DNA from: Candidatus Bathyarchaeia archaeon
Lineage (GTDB): Archaea; Thermoproteota; Bathyarchaeia; Bathyarchaeales; Bathycorpusculaceae
Assembly: GCA_038883795.1 (NCBI GenBank)
Contig: JAVZLK010000001.1
Location: 1 to 64,000, forward strand
Length of the DNA stretch: 64,000 bases
Direction of reading: 5' to 3'
This document shows, piece by piece, positions 2,018 through 25,404 of this stretch. Within the stretch, counting starts at the first letter, position 1. Every line of letters begins with the position of its first letter. The notes under the pieces are model-generated. The model was not told the origin of the DNA. It saw only the letters and a list, made by a program, of their open reading frames with translations, and ran no database searches. Position numbers and translations under genes: made by a program.

Positions 2018-4165
2018 CTATTCCCTTATACATGGGACAAGCACTTTGAATATTATTATACCTAGCGCAGCAAACAGCAAAGTTGCAATTATAGCGACAA
2101 ATGTAAACTCCGGAATTTCGGTGCTGTTTATAGTGACAGAGTTTGCTTGACCTGCATATGTTATCCAATAATTATTTGTTAGTGGTTCTTGTTCAACGCT
2201 TAGTTGAGTGTAATTGCAATTCTTATAGTTTATCTCCACGATGTCGCTTACATTCAAGATTTTCAAAATTGGCAATTCGTTTATTGGTTTTAAAGCATCA
2301 GAGGTGTTTGTACTTGCACTCAACAACTGCTGATGACCTAAAGGATGTTCAAGAACCCTGAATCTGAGTATACAATTTATGGTATCATGAAAAACATCGG
2401 TTACGTAGACTGGTGTAACGTAAATAGCGTCATCTTCTATGTGGATAGCACTAATATAGAGAATTTTATATGTTTTTGAGAAATATGAGTGGTACAGATT
2501 TAAAATTTCATCATCACTTAGAGCATAACTATAAATTCTAACATCGTCAATTTTTCCCATGAAAAATTCAGGGTAATCTCTTTTACCTATGTTTAGAGGA
2601 GCATTTCCGTCTTCTGGTATTATGATGCCTGTGTAGTTACGACTTGCATTTTTCAAAACTCCATTTTTATAGATTTTTAATACATCATCTTGAATAACAC
2701 CCGTTATGAAAATCCATTCATTAATGGTAATAACCTCTCTAATGTATGCTCCAATTCCATAGCCACCAGTTCTGTTATGAATGTAGAAACAGATGTCATT
2801 AGGTCTGTTAACGGAATTTTCTGCATTGTATATTACAAAATTCCATTCGTATTCGTTTGGCATGCCTTTACCAAAAAAGCGGATATAACCATACTCATTT
2901 GCCGTAGGGTATTGAAGGGTAGCAGGAGATATCCAGAAAGAAATTGTTAAACCATTGGGGTTATTGACAATACTGAATTCTGGCTTATCAGGAACACTTA
3001 CATAATCGTCAATTCCATCCAAATAAAGAGCCTTTCCGCTAATCCCGTCTTCAAATTTTAATGGTGTGCAAAAACTTTGTGCATGATAGGCATTTTTTGA
3101 AGAATCCATCAAATTTCCATCAAATTTTAGCCATAAAATCAAATTATCGTAAAATGGAGTGAAGGGGTCTAAATATCCATTTCTGAATAAAACCCATCCA
3201 TTAAAACCGTAATTTATAACCATTTTTATTTGATTCTCAAAAATCTCTTTAGCGTTTTCTTTGTCATGATAAGCATAGATACCAACTCCTATTAATAGAG
3301 GGATTTTGAGGCTCCATCTTTGCTTTATATTGTCCAACATTCCTCGAAATTCGTTCATGTCTGCTGTATAAGCCATGCCAACCAAGAAATCAACCATATT
3401 GAAATTTTCCCAATAAACCCAATCTTGCAATTCGCCTTCTGGTTCTGGAAAAACCGCACATGATAACTCTTTATTTAAATCGAAAGATTTTATCATAATA
3501 TATGTTTGATTAACAAAATCGGTCACTTGCTGCTTTCTCCACTCTTTCCATTCTGGAGCGTTAGCGTTATCTATTGGGTCAAATCCATAAATTTTCTCAA
3601 AAACTGTTCTAGAATATGGGTCATAAGAATAGTAGGAAGGATAACGTATGTAATCTAAATGGATGCCTTTAACAGCATAATTTTGGATTATCTCACTCAT
3701 AATATTGAAATAATAGGTTTTAACTTCTGGAAGGGCAAAATTAACCCAATCTGAAGTTTGCCCATTCACATCGCACATCGCATAAGAGGAGTTTTGATTA
3801 ACTAGATAATAATCTCTCCCCACGCAAATCCATGCATGGATTAAAAGGTTAAATTGGTTCGCAATCTCGCAAGCTAATTTTAAGGGGTCCCATTCAAAAT
3901 AGTGATTATTTGAAATATTGGAGTTGTAGAAAATGTAACCTTCGCTTGATTTTGTCAAAACGAATATTTCATTGATGCCTATTTGATGATAATGTTCAAA
4001 CTCGTCTAACAATTGAATCCGAGCTGATGTATAATTCGCGTTCAAATCCCCCAAACTATACCAAATGCCATGCCTTAAAACTTCAGTATTACTTAAAGAT
4101 GGAATAAAAGTTAGAAAGAGTGAAAATATTATTAGGATTAACATTATGATTTTAACCTTGTTCAT
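2018..4165 (-). CDS. secreted glycoside hydrolase (GHL10/DUF187-like TIM barrel) + LamG/ConA domain + PEF-CTERM anchor
   Basis: Signal peptide; IHAWI and GIHLDYIRYP motifs; LamG motifs LYLDGIDDYV and GKIDDVRIYSYALS; C-terminal IPEF+TM; SD GAGGTG upstream of ATG 4165. Confidence 0.8.
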   Translation of the reverse strand: MNKVKIIMLILIIFSLFLTFIPSLSNTEVLRHGIWYSLGDLNANYTSARIQLLDEFEHYHQIGINEIFVLTKSSEGYIFYNSNISNNHYFEWDPLKLACEIANQFNLLIHAWICVGRDYYLVNQNSSYAMCDVNGQTSDWVNFALPEVKTYYFNIMSEIIQNYAVKGIHLDYIRYPSYYSYDPYSRTVFEKIYGFDPIDNANAPEWKEWRKQQVTDFVNQTYIMIKSFDLNKELSCAVFPEPEGELQDWVYWENFNMVDFLVGMAYTADMNEFRGMLDNIKQRWSLKIPLLIGVGIYAYHDKENAKEIFENQIKMVINYGFNGWVLFRNGYLDPFTPFYDNLILWLKFDGNLMDSSKNAYHAQSFCTPLKFEDGISGKALYLDGIDDYVSVPDKPEFSIVNNPNGLTISFWISPATLQYPTANEYGYIRFFGKGMPNEYEWNFVIYNAENSVNRPNDICFYIHNRTGGYGIGAYIREVITINEWIFITGVIQDDVLKIYKNGVLKNASRNYTGIIIPEDGNAPLNIGKRDYPEFFMGKIDDVRIYSYALSDDEILNLYHSYFSKTYKILYISAIHIEDDAIYVTPVYVTDVFHDTINCILRFRVLEHPLGHQQLLSASTNTSDALKPINELPILKILNVSDIVEINYKNCNYTQLSVEQEPLTNNYWITYAGQANSVTINSTEIPEFTFVAIIATLLFAALGIIIFKVLVPCIRE

Positions 4166-16139: not shown

Positions 16140-17252
16140 TTATGTTAGTAGGTGTATGTTTCCTATGCGTGTATTGGTTAAGTGTTTTTGTGCTGCTTTT
16201 TGGCATTCCACGGCTTGTTTTTTGGTTGTTGTGGGCAAATCATTCATCACATAGCATGGATAAAAAGCCAAAAGCGTATACGGAATATTCACGTTCACTT
16301 CACTTATGAATTTGGCAATATTCTCCACTTCTTCAGCATCCACGTAACCAGGCACAAGCAAAGTGCTAGCCGTAAGCATTGGCAGTTCCTCCCGCTTACT
16401 ATAATATTTTTCTCCTATTAGGCGAAAATTTTCCAGAGAAGGCTTGTTGGACACTCCGCAAAGCGCCAATGCCAGCTCTTCACTGTAAGCTTTTAAATCA
16501 AATTTTATGTTGCCACCGCTTGCTAAAGCGTATTCCGCCGCCCGTTCAGCCAATTTCGGATTCATATAACCATTTGTTTCCCAGCAAATCCGCAAAATAC
16601 GGTTTTCAGCCCTCGCCTTTTCCAATGCTATGCGACTAACCTCCAATGAATGAGGCATTTGAGGCGAAGGGTCGCCGCCAAAATAGCATATACAAGAAAC
16701 ATGCTTTTCCACCCGGGCGGCAAGGGCTTCAGCGCTCGTAACAGGCTTGTGTTTGGCGGACAGGTTGCGGTAATGCCAATTCTGGCAGAAGAGACAATCG
16801 TAACTGCAGGCGCCATAAAAAACAGCCAAATTCGAATAGCCATACTCTGCAGAAGGCTTGTAGGCATACCGCGGATAGCCAGCGCCAGTGCAGCCAGGAC
16901 AAAACCACCAGCTAACGCAGTTGGTTGGCAAACCATCATAATACCACTCCAAAACGCCCTTATCCGCAGTACCGCCAAAACGAACCAAACGCCCACTCAT
17001 ATTCCAGACCAAACCACAAAAACCGCTGTTGCCAACACCAATAACACAATTGTTAGCACAAACACCACACGCAATTCCACCCTCATCCCTCGGCGGCTTC
17101 GCGGGCAAACCAAAAACAGTCCGACTCTTCGCATGCGCTTCATCAGCAATCACAAGCGCTTCTTCAGGCTTCTTCCGTATACATTTGAGGCAGACGCCCA
17201 AATTCTCTGATATTGTAAGCGAACTTTCACCGCAAACTTTGCATTTTCCCAT
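16140..17252 (-). CDS. radical SAM protein (PFL-activase/AmmeMemoRadiSam-like)
   Basis: CSYDCLFC, GGDP, WETNG, KFDLK; N-terminal Cys clusters. Confidence 0.85.
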   Translation of the reverse strand: MGKCKVCGESSLTISENLGVCLKCIRKKPEEALVIADEAHAKSRTVFGLPAKPPRDEGGIACGVCANNCVIGVGNSGFCGLVWNMSGRLVRFGGTADKGVLEWYYDGLPTNCVSWWFCPGCTGAGYPRYAYKPSAEYGYSNLAVFYGACSYDCLFCQNWHYRNLSAKHKPVTSAEALAARVEKHVSCICYFGGDPSPQMPHSLEVSRIALEKARAENRILRICWETNGYMNPKLAERAAEYALASGGNIKFDLKAYSEELALALCGVSNKPSLENFRLIGEKYYSKREELPMLTASTLLVPGYVDAEEVENIAKFISEVNVNIPYTLLAFYPCYVMNDLPTTTKKQAVECQKAAQKHLTNTRIGNIHLLT

Positions 17253-17287
17253 AACAAACTCAAAAATAAACTAGGCAAACAAGCCTA

Positions 17288-17393
17288 AAAATCTATAGAG
17301 GGGTATCCAATTTGCGAAAGAAAACACTGATAAATTTGACAATAAAACATAGAGGGTGGGGCTACCGTATTGCGATGGAAAAACGCCAAAAAT
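17288..17393. repeat. intergenic dispersed element, copy 1
   Basis: Colinear blocks shared with the reverse complement of 52204-52307. Confidence 0.75.
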
Positions 17394-17394
17394 G

Positions 17395-17688
17395 CTAACC
17401 GCCGCCCACTGGCGGAATTATCGCCAGAACATCCCCATCAGAAAGCTCAGTCTCTAAACCCTTAAGCGTAGAAGCGCTCCTGCCATTAATTAGAAACTGC
17501 AGAAAACCCTTAACTTCGCCCGTCTTACTATCATAAAGATAATCATCAAAATCCTTTCCATAACGCTCACTCAACCGCCTAAGAACACTATCCACAGTAA
17601 CCCTTTCATCATCAGAAAACTCCAAAGTTTCTTCTCGCTTACCAACAATCTCTCTAAGGCTTGTGAAGAAACGCACCGAAACCCGCAT
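17395..17688 (-). CDS. MoaD/SAMP ubiquitin-like sulfur carrier
   Basis: beta-grasp pattern VRFF..LRE...DGDVLAIIPPVGGG with C-terminal GG. Confidence 0.92.
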   Translation of the reverse strand: MRVSVRFFTSLREIVGKREETLEFSDDERVTVDSVLRRLSERYGKDFDDYLYDSKTGEVKGFLQFLINGRSASTLKGLETELSDGDVLAIIPPVGGG

Positions 17689-17845
17689 GGCAAACCACCA
17701 AAGATCAAATTTAGCAAGCCAAAATTTAAACTGTTACCAAGCCAATGGCGCATTCGCAAAAACAAAAGTAAAAGTTTATATTTTAGGGCTTTTTTGCTAT
17801 TCGGAATAGCTAAAAATAACATTCTAACAAAATGGAGGAATTTGT

Positions 17846-19498
17846 ATGGCATACTTAACAACAACCCAGTCTGGACAACCAGTCCTAATCCTAAAAGAAG
17901 GCACAACCCGCAGCCGCGGAAGAGAAGCCCAAAGAAACAATATCATGGCGGCACGCATCATAGGCGAAGTCCTAAAAACCACCCTTGGACCGCGAGGAAT
18001 GGACAAAATGCTCATTGACAGCCTAGGCGACATAACAATAACCAACGACGGCGCAGCCATCCTAGACGAAATAGAAGTGGAACACCCAGCAGCAAAAATG
18101 ATGGTTGAAATAGCAAAAACCCAAGACGACATGGTAGGAGACGGAACAACAACAGCCGTAGTCCTAGCAGGAGAACTCCTCAAAAAAGCAGAAGAACTCC
18201 TAGACCAAAACATTCACCCAACAATAATCGTGAGCGGTTATAGAAAAGCAGCTCAAAAAGCCGTAGAAACAATAAACAAAATCGCCACGCCAGTAGACAT
18301 CGAAGACAGAGAAACTCTAAAGAAAGTGGCATTAACATCCATGGCAAGCAAAGCCGTAGGTCCAGCAAAAGAGCACTTGGCAGAAATAGCCATAGACGCA
18401 GTCAAACAAATAGCAGAAAAACGCGGAGACAAACTGATAGCAGACATAGACAACATACAAATAATAAAGAAAACAGGAAAAAGCCTCCTTGAGTCGCAAC
18501 TAGTAAAAGGCTTAATAATAGACAAAGAAGTTGTCCACCCAGGAATGCCCAAAAAACTAGAAAACGCAAAAATCGCCTTGCTCGACTGCCCACTAGAAAT
18601 TGAAAAAACAGAATTCAGCGCAGAAATCCGCATCCGCGACCCGCTTCAAATGAAAGCCTTCCTAGACCAAGAAACAAAAATGCTCAAAGAAATGGTAGAC
18701 AAAATAAAGGCAGTAGGCGCCAACGTAGTCTTCTGCCAAAAAGGCATCGATGACATGGCGCAACACTTCCTAGCAAAAGAAGGCATACTCGCAGCCAGAC
18801 GCGTAAAACAATCAGACATGGAAAAACTCGCAAGAGCAACGGGCGGAAGAATAATCACAGATTTAGACGACTTAACAGCGCAAGATTTGGGCGAAGCTGG
18901 CATTGTTGAAGAACGCAAAATTGGCGAGGACAAAATGATTTTCGTGGAAAAATGCAAAGACCCGCGGTCTGTGGCTGTGCTTATAAGGGCTGGACTTGAA
19001 AGAATGGTTGACGAAGCAGAAAGAGCCATGACAGACGCCCTATCCGTAGTATCAGACGTAATAGAAAACAACAAAATAGTCGCAGGCGGCGGCGCAGTAG
19101 AAGTAGAAATCGCCAAAGAACTCCGCGACTACGCCACAAAAGTCGGCGGAAGAGAACAACTAGCCATAGAAGCCTTCGCCGACGCCATAGAAATAGTCCC
19201 AAGAACATTAGCTGAAAACGCTGGACTCGAACCAATAGACATAATCGTAGAACTACGAGCAGCCCACGAGAAAAAAGACGGAAACGCTATGGGAGTAAAC
19301 GTTTTCACAGGAAAAGTCGAAAACATGCAGGAAAACGGTGTAGTAGAACCATTAATAGTCAAAGAACAAGCAGTAAAATCCGCCGCAGAATCAGCATCAA
19401 TGATACTCCGCATAGACGACGTAATAGCAGCAACAAAACCAAAAGAAGAAAAAGCACCAGAAAAACCACCAGGCGAAGGCGAAAGCGAAGAATACTAA
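17846..19498 (+). CDS. thermosome (group II chaperonin) subunit
   Basis: [28 protein letters not shown]. Confidence 0.97.
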
Positions 19499-19562: not shown

Positions 19563-19580
19563 CGAAGAAATATTTATTTA
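19563..19580 (+). promoter_or_regulatory. putative BRE/TATA promoter of the riboswitch operon
   Basis: cGAAGAAA-TATTTATTTA about 30 nt upstream of the aptamer. Confidence 0.45.
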
Positions 19581-19610
19581 CTTTTTTACTATACTTTCCA
19601 GAAATATAAA

Positions 19611-19672
19611 GGCGATGAAGCTCGCCTTCAACCGCCCTTGCTTCTGCAGGTGCAGGGGCTGATAGCTTCTAC
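19611..19672 (+). ncRNA. fluoride (crcB) riboswitch aptamer
   Basis: GGCGAUGAAGCUCGCC..AACCGCCCUUGC..GCAGGGGCUGAUAGCUUCUAC; P1 GGCG/CGCC, P2 19634-41/19652-59, pseudoknot GAAGCU 19617-22/AGCUUC 19664-69. Confidence 0.92.
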
Positions 19673-19703
19673 TCAACAATAAAGCGTAAGAGGGTATGTT
19701 AGA

Positions 19704-20567
19704 TTGCGTGAAGTGGGGCGGTTCGATGATTTAGAACTTGAGCAGTCTGCCAACTTTTTATGGGTTAAACGTGTCATCCAGTACGTAGTGAATCGACAGA
19801 ACGAAGACGGCGGATATACTTTCTGTCAAGGCATCGAATCAAATGCACAAGATACCTATTATGGACTTGCAATCTTAGACTTGTTAAACTTTCCATTTCC
19901 AAATGTTGAAAGGACCGTTAAGTGGTTACACGACTTTGTTCCAGACAATCTTTATTCACATTATTATGTGGCTAAAGCCTTAAAATTGTGCGGTGAAAAA
20001 CCCGAAAAAAATCTTAAAGATTTCATACTTTCTCTACCCAGCGTCAAAGGCGAGTTTGGAACAGTTGATGTTTATGTTGAAGTCGCTTCAGAATTTCTAC
20101 TCACTTTCATGACGACCGAGCTTATTAAAATTGTGGGCTTAGAAATTGAAAGCAAAAAACTCGCAGATTGGTTGTTAAGCTTCAAAAATAAGAACGGTGG
20201 TTTTGGAGCTCACAGACACTCAAATTTGAATTCCACCTATCACGCTGTGGCTTCACTTTTCAACCTTGGCTATCCGATCAAATCTCTCAGGGACACTTTG
20301 AGTTATGTTAGAGCTTGTGAAAAGCCATTTGGAGGCTTCACGGTTGTGCCACATGCTTCTACACCATACATGGAACACATATACTATGGAACGTCAACGC
20401 TTAATATTCTTGGCGAGCGCTTGAGATACCCAAAGCAAACAGCAGAATTCGTTCTTAAATGTCAAAATGCAAACGGCGGATTTGCAAGATCTGACATTGG
20501 GATATCTACTTTCGAAGATACTTTCTACGCCGTTAATGTATTAAAAACAATCAGTGCGCAGTGGTGA
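19704..20567 (+). CDS. prenyltransferase/squalene-oxidase-repeat protein (class II terpene cyclase fold, COG1689-like)
   Basis: Repeated QNEDGGY, KNKNGGF, PFGGF, QNANGGF units each followed by TY/TF.A helices; start uncertain. Confidence 0.82.
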   Translation: MREVGRFDDLELEQSANFLWVKRVIQYVVNRQNEDGGYTFCQGIESNAQDTYYGLAILDLLNFPFPNVERTVKWLHDFVPDNLYSHYYVAKALKLCGEKPEKNLKDFILSLPSVKGEFGTVDVYVEVASEFLLTFMTTELIKIVGLEIESKKLADWLLSFKNKNGGFGAHRHSNLNSTYHAVASLFNLGYPIKSLRDTLSYVRACEKPFGGFTVVPHASTPYMEHIYYGTSTLNILGERLRYPKQTAEFVLKCQNANGGFARSDIGISTFEDTFYAVNVLKTISAQW

Positions 20568-21331
20568 TTTACATGAGCCTTGACGTAACGTATTTCCGTA
20601 TTGAAAGGATGATCAAAAGCGGCGCAGAATGCTTCTTATGCGCACTTGAAGATGAAATTGAAAGAAAATACATAGACGCCTACCTTTCCGAGCTTGTAAT
20701 GGATAGTAAAGCAAGAGAAAAAATCGTCGAGAGCAGAGGATTTTGCAACCACCACTTTTACAGAATGCTGATCGCCGCAGGCAAACCAGAAAGCCCAGAC
20801 GGCCACGGAATAGCCCTAATCAGCCAAGACATCATTGAAAAACTCATTCAAGACTTGCATAAACAAAAGAAAAACCGTGAGAAAAATTTCCATCAAAAAG
20901 AAAGCATAAGAAACTGTCCAGCATGCGTGTATATGGCTAATCTCATGAAAATTTGCAACAAAAAGATCGTGAAGCTTCTTTCATTAAACCAGAAAGAGTT
21001 TCTTATGCTCTTCAAAGATTCTGAAGGACTCTGCATCCCACACTTTACAGCACTAATCAACGCATTAAAAGAGGTTTTGCATAGCAAAAATTGGGAAGCC
21101 GTTGAAACTATTATAGAAATTGAAGAAAAAAATCTTCGACGGTTGGGCTCAGAACTTGCTGAGTATATAAGAAGACAAAGCTACGAGTTTTCAGACCAAG
21201 ACCGCAGAGCAGTAGAAGATGTCCTCTTAAGAAGCGTTCAAAAGATGGTTGGCAGACGAGGATTGAAGCTTAGAAATGTTTCTGTTAACCGTATGAGGAA
21301 AAAGAATGTTCAGCCGCATAGTTTTAAATAA
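20561..21331 (+). CDS. DUF6062-like Cys/His metal-binding protein
   Basis: Two internal repeats: CFLC...GFCNHH and CPAC...GLCIPH. Confidence 0.7.
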   Translation: MVIYMSLDVTYFRIERMIKSGAECFLCALEDEIERKYIDAYLSELVMDSKAREKIVESRGFCNHHFYRMLIAAGKPESPDGHGIALISQDIIEKLIQDLHKQKKNREKNFHQKESIRNCPACVYMANLMKICNKKIVKLLSLNQKEFLMLFKDSEGLCIPHFTALINALKEVLHSKNWEAVETIIEIEEKNLRRLGSELAEYIRRQSYEFSDQDRRAVEDVLLRSVQKMVGRRGLKLRNVSVNRMRKKNVQPHSFK

Positions 21332-21626
21332 AAAAGACAAATCAGCAATAACAGAAGTGTTTCTTGATCATTCAACCTATGAAAAATTCAAAGCGTATAT
21401 GGCTGAGAACAATCTAGACGAAAGCAGTGCACTTGTTAAGGTATTGGAGCGTGGAATGACAAACTATTGGTTACAGGAATTCAAGCAAATGAAGAAAAGT
21501 TACTTGCACATGAAGAAATTGTTCAGAGAATACAAAAAAGACAATGAAACCTTGAAGGCTTTAGAGAAAGAAAACGAGCAACTAAGAAAAATGCTGAATG
21601 AAATGACTACAGAGGATGAAACATGA
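21306..21626 (+). CDS. hypothetical protein (RHH-like N-terminus + coiled coil)
   Basis: Overlaps both neighbours; EVFLDHSTYEKFKAYM..ESSALVKVLERGM pattern. Confidence 0.6.
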   Translation: MFSRIVLNKKDKSAITEVFLDHSTYEKFKAYMAENNLDESSALVKVLERGMTNYWLQEFKQMKKSYLHMKKLFREYKKDNETLKALEKENEQLRKMLNEMTTEDET

Positions 21627-22129
21627 AGATTAACAAGAATTTTTCCAGTAAAGAATGGTCTCCAAAACCTCATCCAAATGACCTTATTGGTGCTTTGGAA
21701 GCTATTGAAAACCGCGAAAAAGTTCACATAAAAGTTACCATTCCATATAAAGCCGCTGAAAAATTAAAGCAGTTTCTAAAAGAGAAAGGAATCCTTGGAA
21801 GCCAAGGCATCCTCCTGCTTATTCAACATGGTCTTTCAAATGAAAGTGAAGAAGAATTGGAGAGCCTAAAAAACGAGATGAAATCAAAAGCTGCTCAAAA
21901 CCTATGGGGAGAATACGCTGTTATGAAATTCAGAACTTATGAGTACTTCATGGAAAACAAAGTCATGACAATGAAACTTTCCAGTATGTTGTATGAAAAT
22001 AAATCATTAAAAAGAACGCTTAAAACAAAAGGCTTGCAAAAGTTTATTTCAGAAGATGAATGGGACAATTGGAACAAATTAAAAATAGATGGCTTCTACC
22101 GCAAATATGTCTTTACAAGTCACCTCTAA
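21623..22129 (+). CDS. hypothetical protein (RHH-like + coiled coil)
   Basis: ATGA-coupled start; IKVTIPYKAAEKLKQFLKEKGI pattern. Confidence 0.6.
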   Translation: MKINKNFSSKEWSPKPHPNDLIGALEAIENREKVHIKVTIPYKAAEKLKQFLKEKGILGSQGILLLIQHGLSNESEEELESLKNEMKSKAAQNLWGEYAVMKFRTYEYFMENKVMTMKLSSMLYENKSLKRTLKTKGLQKFISEDEWDNWNKLKIDGFYRKYVFTSHL

Positions 22130-22212: not shown

Positions 22213-22290
22213 GCTCCGGTAGTATAGTCCGGTCAAGTATTGTGGCCTCTCGAGCCACGGACCCGGGTTCAAATCCCGGCCGGAGCACCA
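22213..22290 (+). tRNA. tRNA-Glu(CTC), intronless, CCA encoded
   Basis: Acceptor GCTCCGG/CCGGAGC, anticodon arm GTGGC-CT-CTC-GA-GCCAC, T-loop GGTTCAAATCC, ends ACCA. Confidence 0.97.
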
Positions 22291-22381: not shown

Positions 22382-22702
22382 TTGGGAGGACCTTCCGAAC
22401 GTGAATATGCAGAAAAGCTTGGCAAGATAAAACAGAAATTGAATCAAAAAGTTGGAGACGTCAGAAAGCAGTTTGAAAAGATTGAAAAGGCTAAGGTGGA
22501 TTTGCTGAAGAAAACGAAAGAGATGAAACACGACGCTGAACGTGAAGTGGTGAAAATAGAAAATGACATAGTAAAATCCAAAGATTTAGCGCCAGAATCC
22601 AAAAGAAGACTTCGCTTGGAGATTGATGCACTCAAAAGCGAAATCCGAGAACGCTACGCTGAAATAGAAGCGCGAATTGCTGAAGCCATTGCGCCAGTGT
22701 AA
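22382..22702 (+). CDS. coiled-coil hypothetical protein
   Basis: Charged heptad-rich ORF, TTG start with GGTG SD. Confidence 0.7.
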   Translation: MGGPSEREYAEKLGKIKQKLNQKVGDVRKQFEKIEKAKVDLLKKTKEMKHDAEREVVKIENDIVKSKDLAPESKRRLRLEIDALKSEIRERYAEIEARIAEAIAPV

Positions 22703-22733
22703 CCGAAGATTTGTTGCAAGGGCTAGATTTTGA

Positions 22734-23138
22734 ATGAGGAAAATTCTTCGGAAGCAGAAATCTGCATATGCGCTTAGTTTAATATTTTGTCTATTGGGAA
22801 TAATTGCCTTTTCAGCTGCTTTATGGAAAACGTATCCCTACCTGTCTTCAAGTGAAAATCCGTTTTCAACTTTTTTATCGCTTCTTTGGACAGAAAAAGT
22901 AACTCTAATTTCATGGTTTGAGTTTAGACTCGTCTACCTTTTTATTTTTGGGGATGTGATGCTGGTTGCGGGAGTGATATTGTGGGTTTTGAGTCGGCAA
23001 TGGTTCATTATTCCAGGAAAAACTGTGTGGTATCAGTGTCCTTTCTGCAAAAAGAAGTGGAAGTCAACAGGAGACAAAGCCCTCGTCCATTGTCCTCACT
23101 GCCGTCAACTGGTTCATCCACAAATTGCCGAAAAATAA
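22734..23138 (+). CDS. two-TM membrane protein with C-terminal zinc ribbon
   Basis: Two TM helices, then CPFC...CPHC. Confidence 0.72.
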   Translation: MRKILRKQKSAYALSLIFCLLGIIAFSAALWKTYPYLSSSENPFSTFLSLLWTEKVTLISWFEFRLVYLFIFGDVMLVAGVILWVLSRQWFIIPGKTVWYQCPFCKKKWKSTGDKALVHCPHCRQLVHPQIAEK

Positions 23139-23264
23139 ACTCGCACACTTTTAGTAAATTTCATAGGCGGGCCATTTGCTCAATGGGAAAGTAATATGCA
23201 AATGAAACATGTGTGAAAGTTGAAGTAAACGTAAACGTATAATCTGTTAATTGGTGGTTAGTGT

Positions 23265-24002
23265 TTGAATTCTTTAATTAAGGCTATGTATGAAAGACTG
23301 GCTAACTTTATGGTTAGAAACATTGATTTTCGTAAAATATCCATTATTCTTGAAGCTGGATGCGGAAGTGGACAGTTAACAATTCCATTTGCCAAAAATG
23401 TTAAGGAAATTCTGAAAGAATTCAAATTGATTGCCCTTGATGTTTCGGCTGGACCTTACAAGGGAAACTTGGAAGCGCTGAAAAAGCGGATAACAAAGGG
23501 AGGACTGGAAAAGTTTGTTATGCCTCTTAAGGGCGACGTTAGGAACATAAAAGCTATAGAGAACGAAAGCGTGGATTTAATAATTTCAAACGAGCTTTTC
23601 TGCGACCTTAACAGAAAAGGGCTTGAGAAAGCTCTTAGGGAATTTTATAGGATTTTAAAGCCAAATGGGCAGATGGCGCATGGAGAGCTTAATCCAGTTG
23701 CGGAAAATGCTGCTCAAAAATTGCTTATTGAAGCGGATTCTTATTCTATGGAAACCTTAACTCAAAAATATGAATGGTTTTCACCCTTCTCCGATGAGGT
23801 AGTCACACTTATGCATATAATAGGTTTCAAGGACATCACTGTAAAATATTTCGAAACAAATGTTCACCTGTCTTTCAATGAGGCAGTCAAAAAATTAGAA
23901 GAGTGGAATGTTAGCCCAACTTTTATTGAAAAGCGCATGGAAGAGCTTAAGAAATACGGCTTGGAGTTTCCAATGGAGCATATTATCTTTTGCAAAAAGT
24001 AA
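23265..24002 (+). CDS. class I SAM-dependent methyltransferase
   Basis: ILEAGCGSG, GDVRN..ESVDLIISN, RILKPNG. Confidence 0.88.
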   Translation: MNSLIKAMYERLANFMVRNIDFRKISIILEAGCGSGQLTIPFAKNVKEILKEFKLIALDVSAGPYKGNLEALKKRITKGGLEKFVMPLKGDVRNIKAIENESVDLIISNELFCDLNRKGLEKALREFYRILKPNGQMAHGELNPVAENAAQKLLIEADSYSMETLTQKYEWFSPFSDEVVTLMHIIGFKDITVKYFETNVHLSFNEAVKKLEEWNVSPTFIEKRMEELKKYGLEFPMEHIIFCKK

Positions 24003-24020
24003 GATGTAGAAGCTTTGCCT

Positions 24021-24173
24021 TCAATATCTTACGTAGACTTTGCCGCCTAACTCTTCCATGGCCAACTTCAATTTTTCAATAGCTTGCCTCATTTTCACGG
24101 TTGCAACTTCTTGCCAACCTTTCGAACCGTTTGGAACTTCTACCTCAATAACGCATCGGTACTTCTTACTCAT
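24021..24173 (-). CDS. small 50-aa protein MSKKYRCVIEVEVPNG...GGKVYVRY (below ORF-track cutoff)
   Basis: SD GAGGT upstream of ATG 24173; open to TGA 24021; amphipathic beta-alpha-beta pattern. Confidence 0.6.
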   Translation of the reverse strand: MSKKYRCVIEVEVPNGSKGWQEVATVKMRQAIEKLKLAMEELGGKVYVRY

Positions 24174-24366
24174 GGTTAAACCTCAACAGTCCTCATTTAG
24201 ACTTGTCAAGGAAAGAAGTATTTAATGGGTGTGAATTTTGAGTATGAATCTATTATATTTGAAAGTCAGATTCTGAATTCACATTCACCAAATTGTGTAA
24301 TGTAGCATTGGTGTTAGAAAGCTTTAATTAAATCAGCCTTTGTCATTTGAACTATATGGGAATGTT

Positions 24367-25404
24367 ATGGCGAGGCTTGGTGAGTTAAAACTGGCGATGG
24401 GAACATCTATATTTCTTGTAGCCCTAATCTTCGCCCTATTCCTTTCCGCAATAATGTTTATCATCGGGCTTTCTTTAATTTACGCAGTAATCGGCACAAT
24501 ACTCTTCATACTAATCCAATACCTCATAGGACCAGCCATCGTCAGCGCTTCCACACGTCTACAATATTTAAAGCCCGGCGAAAATCCATGGCTTGAATCC
24601 ACAGTGAAAGAGTTGGCGGACAAAAGCGGCATACCAATGCCAAAACTAGCCATTGTGCCAGACGAAACGCCTAACGCTTTTGTTTTTGGAAGAACCGCCA
24701 ACAGCGCCACCCTAGCGGTTCACGAAGGACTTTTGAAGAAATTGAACCAAGAAGAAGTTAAAGGCGTGATTGGTCACGAGTTGGGGCACATAAAGCATAA
24801 GGATTACATAATAATGACAATTGTTTCCGCCCTGCCATTACTTGCTTACTTAATTGCACGGGGGACATGGGAAGCGGCAAGATGGGCACCAGCATCATCA
24901 AAGAAGAAGGAAGAAAGCAGCATAAAAGCAGCCTTTTTCGCCATTGCAATAATCTCCTATGTAGTTTACATAATTTCACTCTTGTGCGTCATGAGGCTCA
25001 GCAGACTCCGCGAGCATTATGCAGACGCATACTCAGCCTATGTAACTGGTTCGCCTCGAAGTTTACAAAGTGCATTGACAAAAATCACTTATGGATTGTC
25101 CCTTTCGCCAAAACCGCCATCAGGAGCTAGAGCCTTCTACATAGAAGACCCAGCATTGGCAAAACAAGAGATTCAACCAATAATTGAGAAAAAGGCAGAG
25201 TACGATTTGGACAAGGACGGGGTGCTTGATGAGAGAGAATTGGAAATAGCCATGGAGAAAGAGGCCAAATCCACATGGGTGAAAATTAACACCTGGTTTG
25301 CGACACATCCGCCCACGTTTAAGCGCATACTATTGTTACGGGAGATAGAGCGGGAAATGGAAAGCGGAAGATACACGGCAGACCGCATATATGCGCATGT
25401 TTAA
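24367..25404 (+). CDS. htpX: HtpX/M48 zinc metalloprotease with EF-hand-like loop
   Basis: PNAF, HELGH, SRLREHYAD, THPP; DLDKDGVLDERE insert. Confidence 0.92.
   Translation: MARLGELKLAMGTSIFLVALIFALFLSAIMFIIGLSLIYAVIGTILFILIQYLIGPAIVSASTRLQYLKPGENPWLESTVKELADKSGIPMPKLAIVPDETPNAFVFGRTANSATLAVHEGLLKKLNQEEVKGVIGHELGHIKHKDYIIMTIVSALPLLAYLIARGTWEAARWAPASSKKKEESSIKAAFFAIAIISYVVYIISLLCVMRLSRLREHYADAYSAYVTGSPRSLQSALTKITYGLSLSPKPPSGARAFYIEDPALAKQEIQPIIEKKAEYDLDKDGVLDERELEIAMEKEAKSTWVKINTWFATHPPTFKRILLLREIEREMESGRYTADRIYAHV

Follow-up and report, generated by a model that had tools for sequence, protein, structure and literature searches.

A fluoride riboswitch in the genome of a Candidatus Bathyarchaeia archaeon stands directly upstream of four coupled genes for soluble proteins, in an assembly that gives no match to the fluoride exporter families CrcB and CLC. 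The operon was found in a stretch of 64,000 nucleotides, the first 64,000 positions of contig JAVZLK010000001.1 (GenBank assembly GCA_038883795.1), which is called the window below. Its first gene, open reading frame 1 (ORF1), encodes a protein with the alpha/alpha toroid fold of prenyltransferases and is referred to as the toroid gene. This gene is the commonest riboswitch target in Bathyarchaeia (17 of 28 riboswitches), and most of the genomes carrying it have neither exporter. To our knowledge, every established form of fluoride resistance depends on exporting the ion through Fluc/CrcB, CLC-F or FEX. An earlier sequence-only reading of the window had proposed an uncharacterised cytoplasmic fluoride-response system. 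As a hypothesis this proposal is supported, the toroid gene being the main riboswitch target and the toroid genomes being mostly exporter-less. The mechanisms that it gave as examples, sequestration or the protection of metal/phosphoryl enzymes, are speculative.

Fluoride aptamer and its linkage to the toroid gene

The aptamer scores 51.0 bits with the Rfam Fluoride model (RF01734), whose gathering score is 34; the E values are 3.3e-11 in the window and 2.7e-13 in the genome. The match covers the model fully (positions 1-64 of 64) and the consensus core nucleotides are kept. P1 is formed by GGCG (19611-14) and CGCC (19623-26), P2 by GCCCTTGC (19634-41) and GCAGGGGC (19652-59), and the pseudoknot by GAAGCT (19617-22) and AGCTTC (19664-69). 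The window aptamer was aligned with nine Rfam-validated aptamers from related genomes (n = 10). In this alignment 98.3% of the cells in the helices are paired, and double changes are seen in seven of the 18 pairs (one in P1, five in P2 and one in the pseudoknot). The two-sided swaps include CG<->UA in P1 and UA<->CG in the pseudoknot. None of 500 shuffles attained the observed values, and partners slid by one to three columns paired in 39-59%. P1, P2 and the pseudoknot are thus backed by covariation. The aptamer is a genuine member of RF01734 and the only such element in the 2.18-Mb assembly (81 contigs, 87% complete). The RNA itself is standard; its regulon is not.

The sequence-only reading had described a complete crcB-type aptamer with P1, P2 and a GAAGCU/AGCUUC pseudoknot and had named a search with the Rfam model as the check; the significant match and the covarying helices bear this out. 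Its spacing of 30 nt between aptamer and operon has to be corrected, as the measured gap from the aptamer end to the TTG start codon of ORF1 is 25 nt. Upstream, a GAAAT-N-TTTAT box lies about 25 nt 5' of the first aptamer position, and all the upstream regions aligned from homologous loci (8 of 8) keep its AA...TTAT core unchanged. The box is probably an archaeal B recognition element (BRE)/TATA promoter; the transcription start is an inferred one. Contigs from two runs of doubtful RNA status cover parts of the stretch, and in them the summed word depth reached 174 and 116 in the aptamer bin at 19612-19715 versus about 10-25 in flanking bins, a rise that may merely sum related organisms with a common conserved aptamer. 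One raw-read RNA run had 0 reads on the stretch, which has no bearing on expression.

The linkage between riboswitch and toroid gene was examined from both sides. On the protein side, 67 loci were retrieved by alignment of ORF1 homologues, mostly from metagenome-assembled genomes (MAGs) of Candidatus Bathyarchaeia/Bathyarchaeota, the others being labelled Frey-, Jord- and Brockarchaeota, Archaeoglobi and further groups. Scanned with a covariance model built from 10 validated aptamers, 56 of the 67 loci showed an aptamer directly 5' of the toroid gene, and the two weakest positives of this model (L055 and L075) were confirmed by Rfam. Two of the 11 aptamer-less loci end at a contig edge; the other nine (L043, L046, L065-67, L081, L082, L087 and L090) have no Rfam match either. 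On the riboswitch side, 151 genomes across Bathyarchaeia gave 28 matches at or above the Rfam threshold. Behind these, the first gene is the toroid gene in 17 cases (the copy in genome G034 is frame-broken), CrcB in six, a transporter of the major facilitator superfamily (MFS) type in three, DUF6062 without a toroid in one (G061), and a protein of 150 amino acids (aa) with no known identity in one (G129). No fluoride riboswitch was found at E <= 0.001 in 124 of the 151 genomes.

The toroid gene is single-copy and occurs in 18 of the 151 genomes, 15 of which have a riboswitch. It is nearly confined to riboswitch genomes and is the main riboswitch target, a pattern more in keeping with a gene dedicated to the fluoride response than with a decayed remnant or a housekeeping function. 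A role as a housekeeping enzyme in need of a back-up copy is likewise unlikely because ORF1 is single-copy, missing in most of the class and near-confined to genomes with the riboswitch. DUF6062, the family of the second gene, occurs in 13 of the 151 genomes and adjoins the toroid gene in 10 of 10 genomes having both. A separate observation concerns locus L015 (G034:C14), where at 2346-3216 a second toroid copy, broken into three frames, lies behind an intact 51-bit riboswitch.

A six-frame search of the whole assembly (G000) gave 0 matches to CrcB (PF02537) and CLC (PF00654); of the 14 control genomes, 11 and 12 respectively gave matches in the same searches. No CrcB, CLC or enolase gene was found in the window, in line with the sequence-only reading, which had noted the absence of Fluc/CrcB, CLC-F and enolase from operon and window. 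The sole enolase of the assembly is located on contig C6, far from any riboswitch. A tblastn search of the assembly with the MFS, NUDIX, CrcB and DUF190 proteins from relatives' operons returned no close homologue, the only match being an MFS protein with 26% identity on contig C4. CrcB is lacking in 5 of 5 genomes of the window's genus (87-93% complete), one of which has a CLC fragment. Among the toroid-carrying Bathyarchaeia genomes, 13 of 18 have neither CrcB nor CLC, and eight of those 13 are 95-100% complete. In the class sample, CrcB is present in 12 of 151 genomes and any CLC in 38.

The sequence-only reading had allowed that homologous operons might always carry crcB or eriC, which would make this one a decayed remnant. 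CrcB lies within about 5 kb downstream in only 8 of 67 toroid loci, and the 13 exporter-less toroid genomes point the same way; crcB is an occasional and not a usual neighbour, so homologous operons do not always carry it. The link of the riboswitch to the toroid gene is general on both sides of the survey (56/67 and 17/28), and DUF6062 accompanies it in 33 of the 67 loci only.

Proteins of the operon and gene content of related loci

ORF1 starts with TTG (19704-06). Locus L048 carries ATG at this point, which speaks for 19704 as the start. The protein matches PF00432 at 83.3 bits (cut-off 26.5) in three stretches and contains four or more repeats of the QN-DGGF type. It matches solved prenyltransferase beta subunits in the Protein Data Bank (PDB) at the repeat level (E 7e-12), and the likeness at this level extends to squalene cyclases. 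These alignments run in several registers; in one HMMER register, DVCYSWW of RabGGT beta is aligned with NLNSTYH of ORF1. The NCBIfam cyclase models score 12-29 bits on ORF1 against cut-offs of 320-850. ORF1 has no membrane segment and is a soluble protein. Reading of the sequence found no DxDD motif. Class II terpene cyclases combine DxDD with a two-domain beta-gamma architecture; as a single domain without DxDD, ORF1 is unlikely to belong to them. The zinc-site ligands of protein prenyltransferases are Asp, Cys and His. In the ORF1 family 76 positions are conserved at 90% or more (59 sequences), and no His is among them. A search for the prenyltransferase alpha subunit (PPTA, PF01239) gave no match in the 87%-complete assembly. 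ORF1 thus shares PF00432 with the beta subunits and lacks their zinc site and alpha partner. Because of the missing conserved His and the missing alpha subunit, it is unlikely to be a canonical protein prenyltransferase. The family is rich in conserved Tyr and Phe, and the inner-helix motifs are rich in Ser, Thr, Asn and Tyr. By their names, distant homologues (20 representatives) come from Methanomethylicia, Methanophagales, and Chloroflexota and Thermodesulfobacteriota MAGs; none of the 20 is from Thermococcus.

ORF2 begins with ATG five bases past the ORF1 stop codon and matches PF19538 (DUF6062) at 118.8 bits (cut-off 27) over profile positions 2-239 of 243. It contains two Cys-x2-Cys...Cys-x2-His sites (C20, C23, C58, H61 and C115, C118, C154, H157). 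In 16 sequences, seven of these residues are invariant and H61 is nearly so. The two Cys3His sites point to a bound metal. The AlphaFold2 (AF2) model of ORF2 has a predicted local distance difference test (pLDDT) value of 79.7 and 11 helices. Foldseek found no PDB structure at E <= 0.001 (best 0.21), and the best Z in a wide structure search was 5.3, on helical repeats, so that no fold could be assigned. A search for fused forms of DUF6062, weak as evidence, found none.

ORF3 overlaps ORF2 by 26 nt. Its family profile (12 sequences) matches the ribbon-helix-helix (RHH) protein 2kel_A at residues 4-48 with an E value of 1.7e-5 (0.19 for 3gxq_A), and by this profile match the N-terminal 45 or so residues are RHH-like. 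ORF4 overlaps ORF3 by ATGA and has no sequence match in Pfam, NCBIfam or PDB. The AF2 monomer model of ORF4 (pLDDT 51.6) is too poor for a fold search, and the structure Atlas gave a NikA-like lead at 0.86 only; an RHH-like N-terminus is suspected. Compared with two loci of the same genus, dN/dS is 0.13-0.17 for ORF1, 0.13-0.15 for ORF2, 0.20-0.22 for ORF3 and 0.23-0.28 for ORF4, which indicates purifying selection on all four. A pseudogene remnant was considered and rejected because of these ratios.

Most of what the sequence-only reading had said of the proteins stands. It had listed four overlapping or coupled ORFs for soluble proteins after the aptamer (they are joined by the 5-nt gap, the 26-nt overlap and the ATGA overlap), a terpene-cyclase/prenyltransferase-repeat protein (ORF1, by PF00432) and a duplicated CxxC..CxxH, DUF6062-like protein (ORF2, by PF19538 and its two conserved sites). 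For the two proposed RHH/coiled-coil proteins, the assignment is upheld for ORF3; for ORF4 the RHH part is unconfirmed, with no PDB match and a poor model.

Table 1. Coordinates of the system and of related features (positions in the window unless a locus is named)
Feature	Position	Strand	Basis
Probable archaeal promoter: BRE-like GAAA, then TATA box TTTATTTA at 19573-19580	19567-19580	+	Read from sequence
Fluoride riboswitch aptamer, RF01734	19602-19678	+	Rfam Fluoride model and covariation
Putative translation initiation region and anti-aptamer	19690-19723	+	Folding, conservation
ORF1, 287 aa, single-domain prenyltransferase-fold alpha/alpha toroid	19704-20567	+	PF00432
ORF2, 252 aa, DUF6062, all-alpha	20573-21331	+	PF19538
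ORF3, 106 aa, N-terminal RHH then predicted coiled coil	21306-21626	+	Family profile
ORF4, 168 aa, conserved small protein, long central helix	21623-22129	+	Conservation
tRNA-Glu(CTC), downstream boundary, outside the system	22213-22290	+	
215-227-aa protein replacing DUF6062	L018 2924-3571; L015 3209-3880; L084 5846-6529; L086 5297-5953; L097; L099		
Tandem riboswitch layout of genus g38	L122 (G173:C33:120690-123767); also G070, G153		

ORFs within 5 kb 3' of the toroid gene were clustered over the 67 loci and the clusters were annotated with Pfam. DUF6062 is the most frequent, followed by the ORF3 and ORF4 families (12/67), which always occur together with the ORF4 family after the ORF3 family (cluster c2). 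Another small coiled-coil pair is found in 8/67 loci. In hhalign comparisons, the ORF3 family gave an E value of 0.013 (probability 3%) with the small protein c8, and the ORF4 family 0.064 with the small protein c9, values that do not establish homology between the two pairs. NUDIX hydrolases and MFS transporters each occur in 10/67 loci, CrcB with DUF190 in 8/67, and enolase in 2/67, where it lies 0.9-1.1 kb 3' of the toroid gene with other ORFs between. In several genomes an unrelated, conserved protein of 215-227 aa, with no Pfam family and no Cys motifs, takes the place of DUF6062 right after the toroid gene. A DUF6062 match next to a riboswitch-less toroid gene (G072:C27:2959-3711) has five TAG and one TAA codons in frame, which may reflect either pseudogenisation or recoding of the stop codons.

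In genus g38, two fluoride switches (RS1 and RS2) stand in series in the order RS1-toroid-DUF6062-NUDIX-RS2-CrcB-DUF190. For L040-L047, which have the same CrcB-DUF190 pair, the 10-aptamer covariance model reported no second aptamer. An above-threshold riboswitch lies directly 5' of an MFS-type transporter gene in L126 (G125:C26, 160-3799), L115 (G091) and L116 (G148), and in G125 a P-type (E1-E2) ATPase follows about 430 nt behind this MFS gene, a weak hint of a metal connection. The riboswitch-linked MFS could represent a fluoride exporter family that has so far gone unrecognised. In four loci without a riboswitch (L065, L066, L067 and L090), genes for a cation diffusion facilitator (CDF; PF01545/PF16916), an ABC ATPase and an ABC-3 metal permease are found on the same strand about 0.6-1.7 kb 3' of the toroid gene, which hints at a tie of the toroid family to divalent-metal homeostasis.

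The neighbours of the operon look ordinary. Upstream (16140-19498) are minus-strand radical-SAM and ThiS-like proteins and a thermosome subunit. Downstream (22382-25404) are a small coiled-coil protein, a CxxC-pair membrane protein, a methyltransferase and an M48 protease, and the genus-mate genome G001 shows the same genes 3' of the operon.

Expression platform, proposed mechanism and alternatives

No T-run is present between the aptamer and ORF1. A Shine-Dalgarno-like GAGGGT is found at 19690-95. GTGAAGT (19708-14) is complementary to the 3' strand of the pseudoknot, and GAAGT within it (19710-14) pairs with GCTTC in the minimum free energy (MFE) fold. GGGGCGGTT (19715-23, ORF1 codons 4-7) is complementary to AACCGCCCT (19630-38) of the P2 5' strand. 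The complementarity to the aptamer spans ORF1 codons 3-7. In the MFE fold of 19595-19760, a long-range helix encloses the start codon; this fold has -48.2 kcal/mol versus -38.7 kcal/mol with the aptamer helices enforced. GGCGGTT occurs within 130 nt downstream in 34 of the 56 aptamer loci, mostly at +33 to +43. In 25 loci picked for carrying this motif, the anti-aptamer helices pair in 93.5% of the cells versus 34-45% when slid. In all 31 loci with an N-terminal x-Gly-Arg-x motif, which are related and do not represent 31 independent events, Gly-Arg is encoded by GGG-CGG; in the remainder of these genes the shares are 13% of the Gly codons for GGG and 9% of the Arg codons for CGG. The fixed choice at synonymous sites is an independent argument for the anti-aptamer. 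Judged by conservation and folding only, the platform is likely a translational ON switch. Computationally, the region has the layout of a riboswitch, a 5' leader with a platform that overlaps its aptamer.

We propose the following mechanism. A canonical fluoride riboswitch would be transcribed from its own BRE/TATA promoter. Without fluoride, the P2 5' strand and the pseudoknot 3' strand would pair with the first ORF1 codons and thereby hide the start region. Fluoride would let the pseudoknotted aptamer form; the start region would then be free and ORF1 would be translated, with ORF2-4 following by translational coupling. The four products would make up a dedicated cytoplasmic fluoride-response module that is independent of export. 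In this module, the toroid and DUF6062 proteins may bind or buffer a divalent metal or a metal-fluoride compound, or they may protect a target that depends on metal; neither would be a prenyltransferase or cyclase in function. Transcriptional feedback may come from the RHH protein. The chemistry assigned to the proteins is a guess on our part; what the analysis shows is the aptamer, the operon with its conservation and its close genomic tie to the riboswitch, and the lack of CrcB and CLC. The explanation as a whole, a translational ON switch in front of an export-independent cytoplasmic module, seems to us evenly balanced between right and wrong.

A number of observations weigh against it. The GGCGGTT motif is missing in 22 of the 56 aptamer loci, and the 25 loci in the pairing count were selected for having it. 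Compensatory covariation in the anti-aptamer is essentially nil, with one double change among 400 cells, since the strand on the aptamer side does not vary. DUF6062 is present in only about half of the operons (33/67) and is swapped in some for the unrelated 215-227-aa protein. The link to metal transporters is weak, as they lie 650-900 nt downstream in a few related MAGs. An isoprenoid-binding pocket would likewise be compatible with the aromatic residues conserved in the toroid. Transporters are frequent in the relatives' operon (MFS in 10/67, CrcB-DUF190 in 8/67), and with an assembly that is 87% complete, an exporter may be unassembled in this one genome.

It follows from those transporters that the soluble proteins could be export helpers such as regulators, chaperones or gating partners of a fluoride exporter; the exporter would be either unassembled here or a member of a family not yet recognised, for example the MFS linked to the riboswitch. 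The g38 locus, in which toroid and CrcB-DUF190 genes follow one another, and the distant MFS protein on contig C4 also speak for such accessories. However, CrcB in g38 is under its own riboswitch and hence a separate unit, close homologues of the operon MFS, NUDIX, CrcB and DUF190 are missing from G000, and CrcB and CLC are absent together from 13 of 18 toroid genomes, eight of them at least 95% complete. We regard the accessory role as unlikely. A role of ORF1 in isoprenoid handling is somewhat less probable still. As an enzyme or binder, ORF1 could remodel archaeal lipids or make a terpenoid and so lower the permeation of hydrogen fluoride (HF), the NUDIX and MFS proteins of relatives processing and exporting the product. 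The PF00432 fold, the repeat-level likeness to prenyltransferase beta subunits and squalene cyclases, the many conserved Tyr and Phe residues and the NUDIX and MFS genes in relatives' operons are in keeping with it. Yet the protein consists of one domain of 287 aa and lacks DxDD, a membrane segment and a conserved His that could serve a zinc site, the genome has no alpha subunit, and the alignments to solved enzymes are at the repeat level in several registers.

Compensation, in which extra or fluoride-resistant copies of fluoride-sensitive enzymes are supplied, is the explanation for riboswitch-controlled enolase and pyrophosphatase, and Mg-dependent pyrophosphohydrolases are fluoride-sensitive. 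NUDIX in 10/67 loci and enolase in two could be read in this way, but the operon in the window contains neither. ORF1 and ORF2 are single-copy with no housekeeping paralogue; they are absent from 133 and 138 of the 151 Bathyarchaeia genomes, respectively, which leaves no essential activity in need of a second copy. We find compensation very improbable for this operon. Even less credit is given to carbon-fluorine (C-F) chemistry, in which fluoride would serve the toroid as the nucleophile that attacks an allylic diphosphate or similar substrate and would be detoxified as a diffusible organofluorine. Its basis is the prenyltransferase fold, the Ser/Thr/Asn/Tyr-rich inner-helix motifs and the absent exporters only; the reaction has no known precedent and there is no conserved catalytic metal site. 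It is just as hard to believe that the aptamer has been repurposed or that the operon answers another signal. Archaeal expression platforms are little studied, which leaves room for this, but the Rfam match is full-length with the consensus core nucleotides intact, and aptamers of this type also stand in front of CrcB in related genomes.

For the export-independent module, a broader claim can be framed: that Bathyarchaeia and some Asgard and Brockarchaeota MAGs resist fluoride without Fluc or CLC-F by means of a cytoplasmic toroid machine, often with DUF6062, that captures, buffers or converts fluoride or metal-fluoride. We put this forward tentatively and lean toward doubting it. If it is true, the toroid-based machine would be a third fluoride-resistance mechanism, independent of export. 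If the proteins confer tolerance, this would mean a new way of handling fluoride, and DUF6062 and an orphan branch of the prenyltransferase fold would each gain a function. The proteins would then also be useful in engineering fluoride-tolerant or defluorinating microbes.

Comparison with known systems

ORF1 shares the alpha/alpha toroid of QN-DGGF repeats (PF00432) with the beta subunits of protein prenyltransferases (RabGGTase and FTase; 6o60_B and 1d8d_B) and with squalene-hopene cyclase. It differs from them in being a single domain with no alpha gene, no His of the zinc triad and no DxDD, and its context is a riboswitch, not isoprenoid genes. The ORF3 family resembles the RHH regulator 'protein 56B' (2kel_A), which we take to be SvtR of a Sulfolobus virus, over the N-terminal region given above. 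Unlike 2kel_A, ORF3 has a C-terminal coiled coil and is always paired with the ORF4 family in a riboswitch operon.

The only validated archaeal fluoride riboswitch known to us is that of Thermococcus kodakarensis, upstream of TK0513 and adjoining crcB (TK0514; PMC4247193). PMC8241225 describes its control as presumed to be translational. The leader reported here would be a second archaeal riboswitch for which translational control has an explicit model open to testing. Both are archaeal fluoride riboswitches in which the first downstream gene is not annotated as crcB. In T. kodakarensis, however, crcB is next door.

Fluoride riboswitch literature includes Weinberg 2010 (PMC2864571), and a super-regulon centred on CrcB and EriC-F is described in PMC7266159. 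According to that paper and PMC11777429, established fluoride resistance is export by Fluc/CrcB, CLC-F or FEX, supplemented by extra copies of fluoride-sensitive enzymes. In our full-text literature search, with supplementary gene lists outside the search, no paper mentioned COG1689 or DUF6062 and none tied a fluoride riboswitch to a prenyltransferase-fold protein. According to the sequence-only reading, COG1689-type genes may recur behind this riboswitch. Baker et al. 2012 is also said to deal with bacterial and archaeal fluoride riboswitch regulons (crcB/Fluc and eriC-F). The toroid gene family may already be named in the supplementary gene lists of Weinberg 2010 or Baker 2012.

The operon in the window has the aptamer family, the 5'-leader position and the ON logic in common with the crcB/eriC-F regulons, and relatives of this archaeon place the same type of aptamer before CrcB-DUF190. 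In contrast to those regulons, four soluble proteins are controlled here in an assembly with no CrcB or CLC, and the main target across Bathyarchaeia is the toroid gene and not crcB (17 versus 6 of 28). In an archaeal class where CrcB is rare (12/151), the fluoride sensor is thus wired mainly to soluble proteins. A known sensor is here joined to uncharacterised non-transporter effectors in exporter-less genomes.

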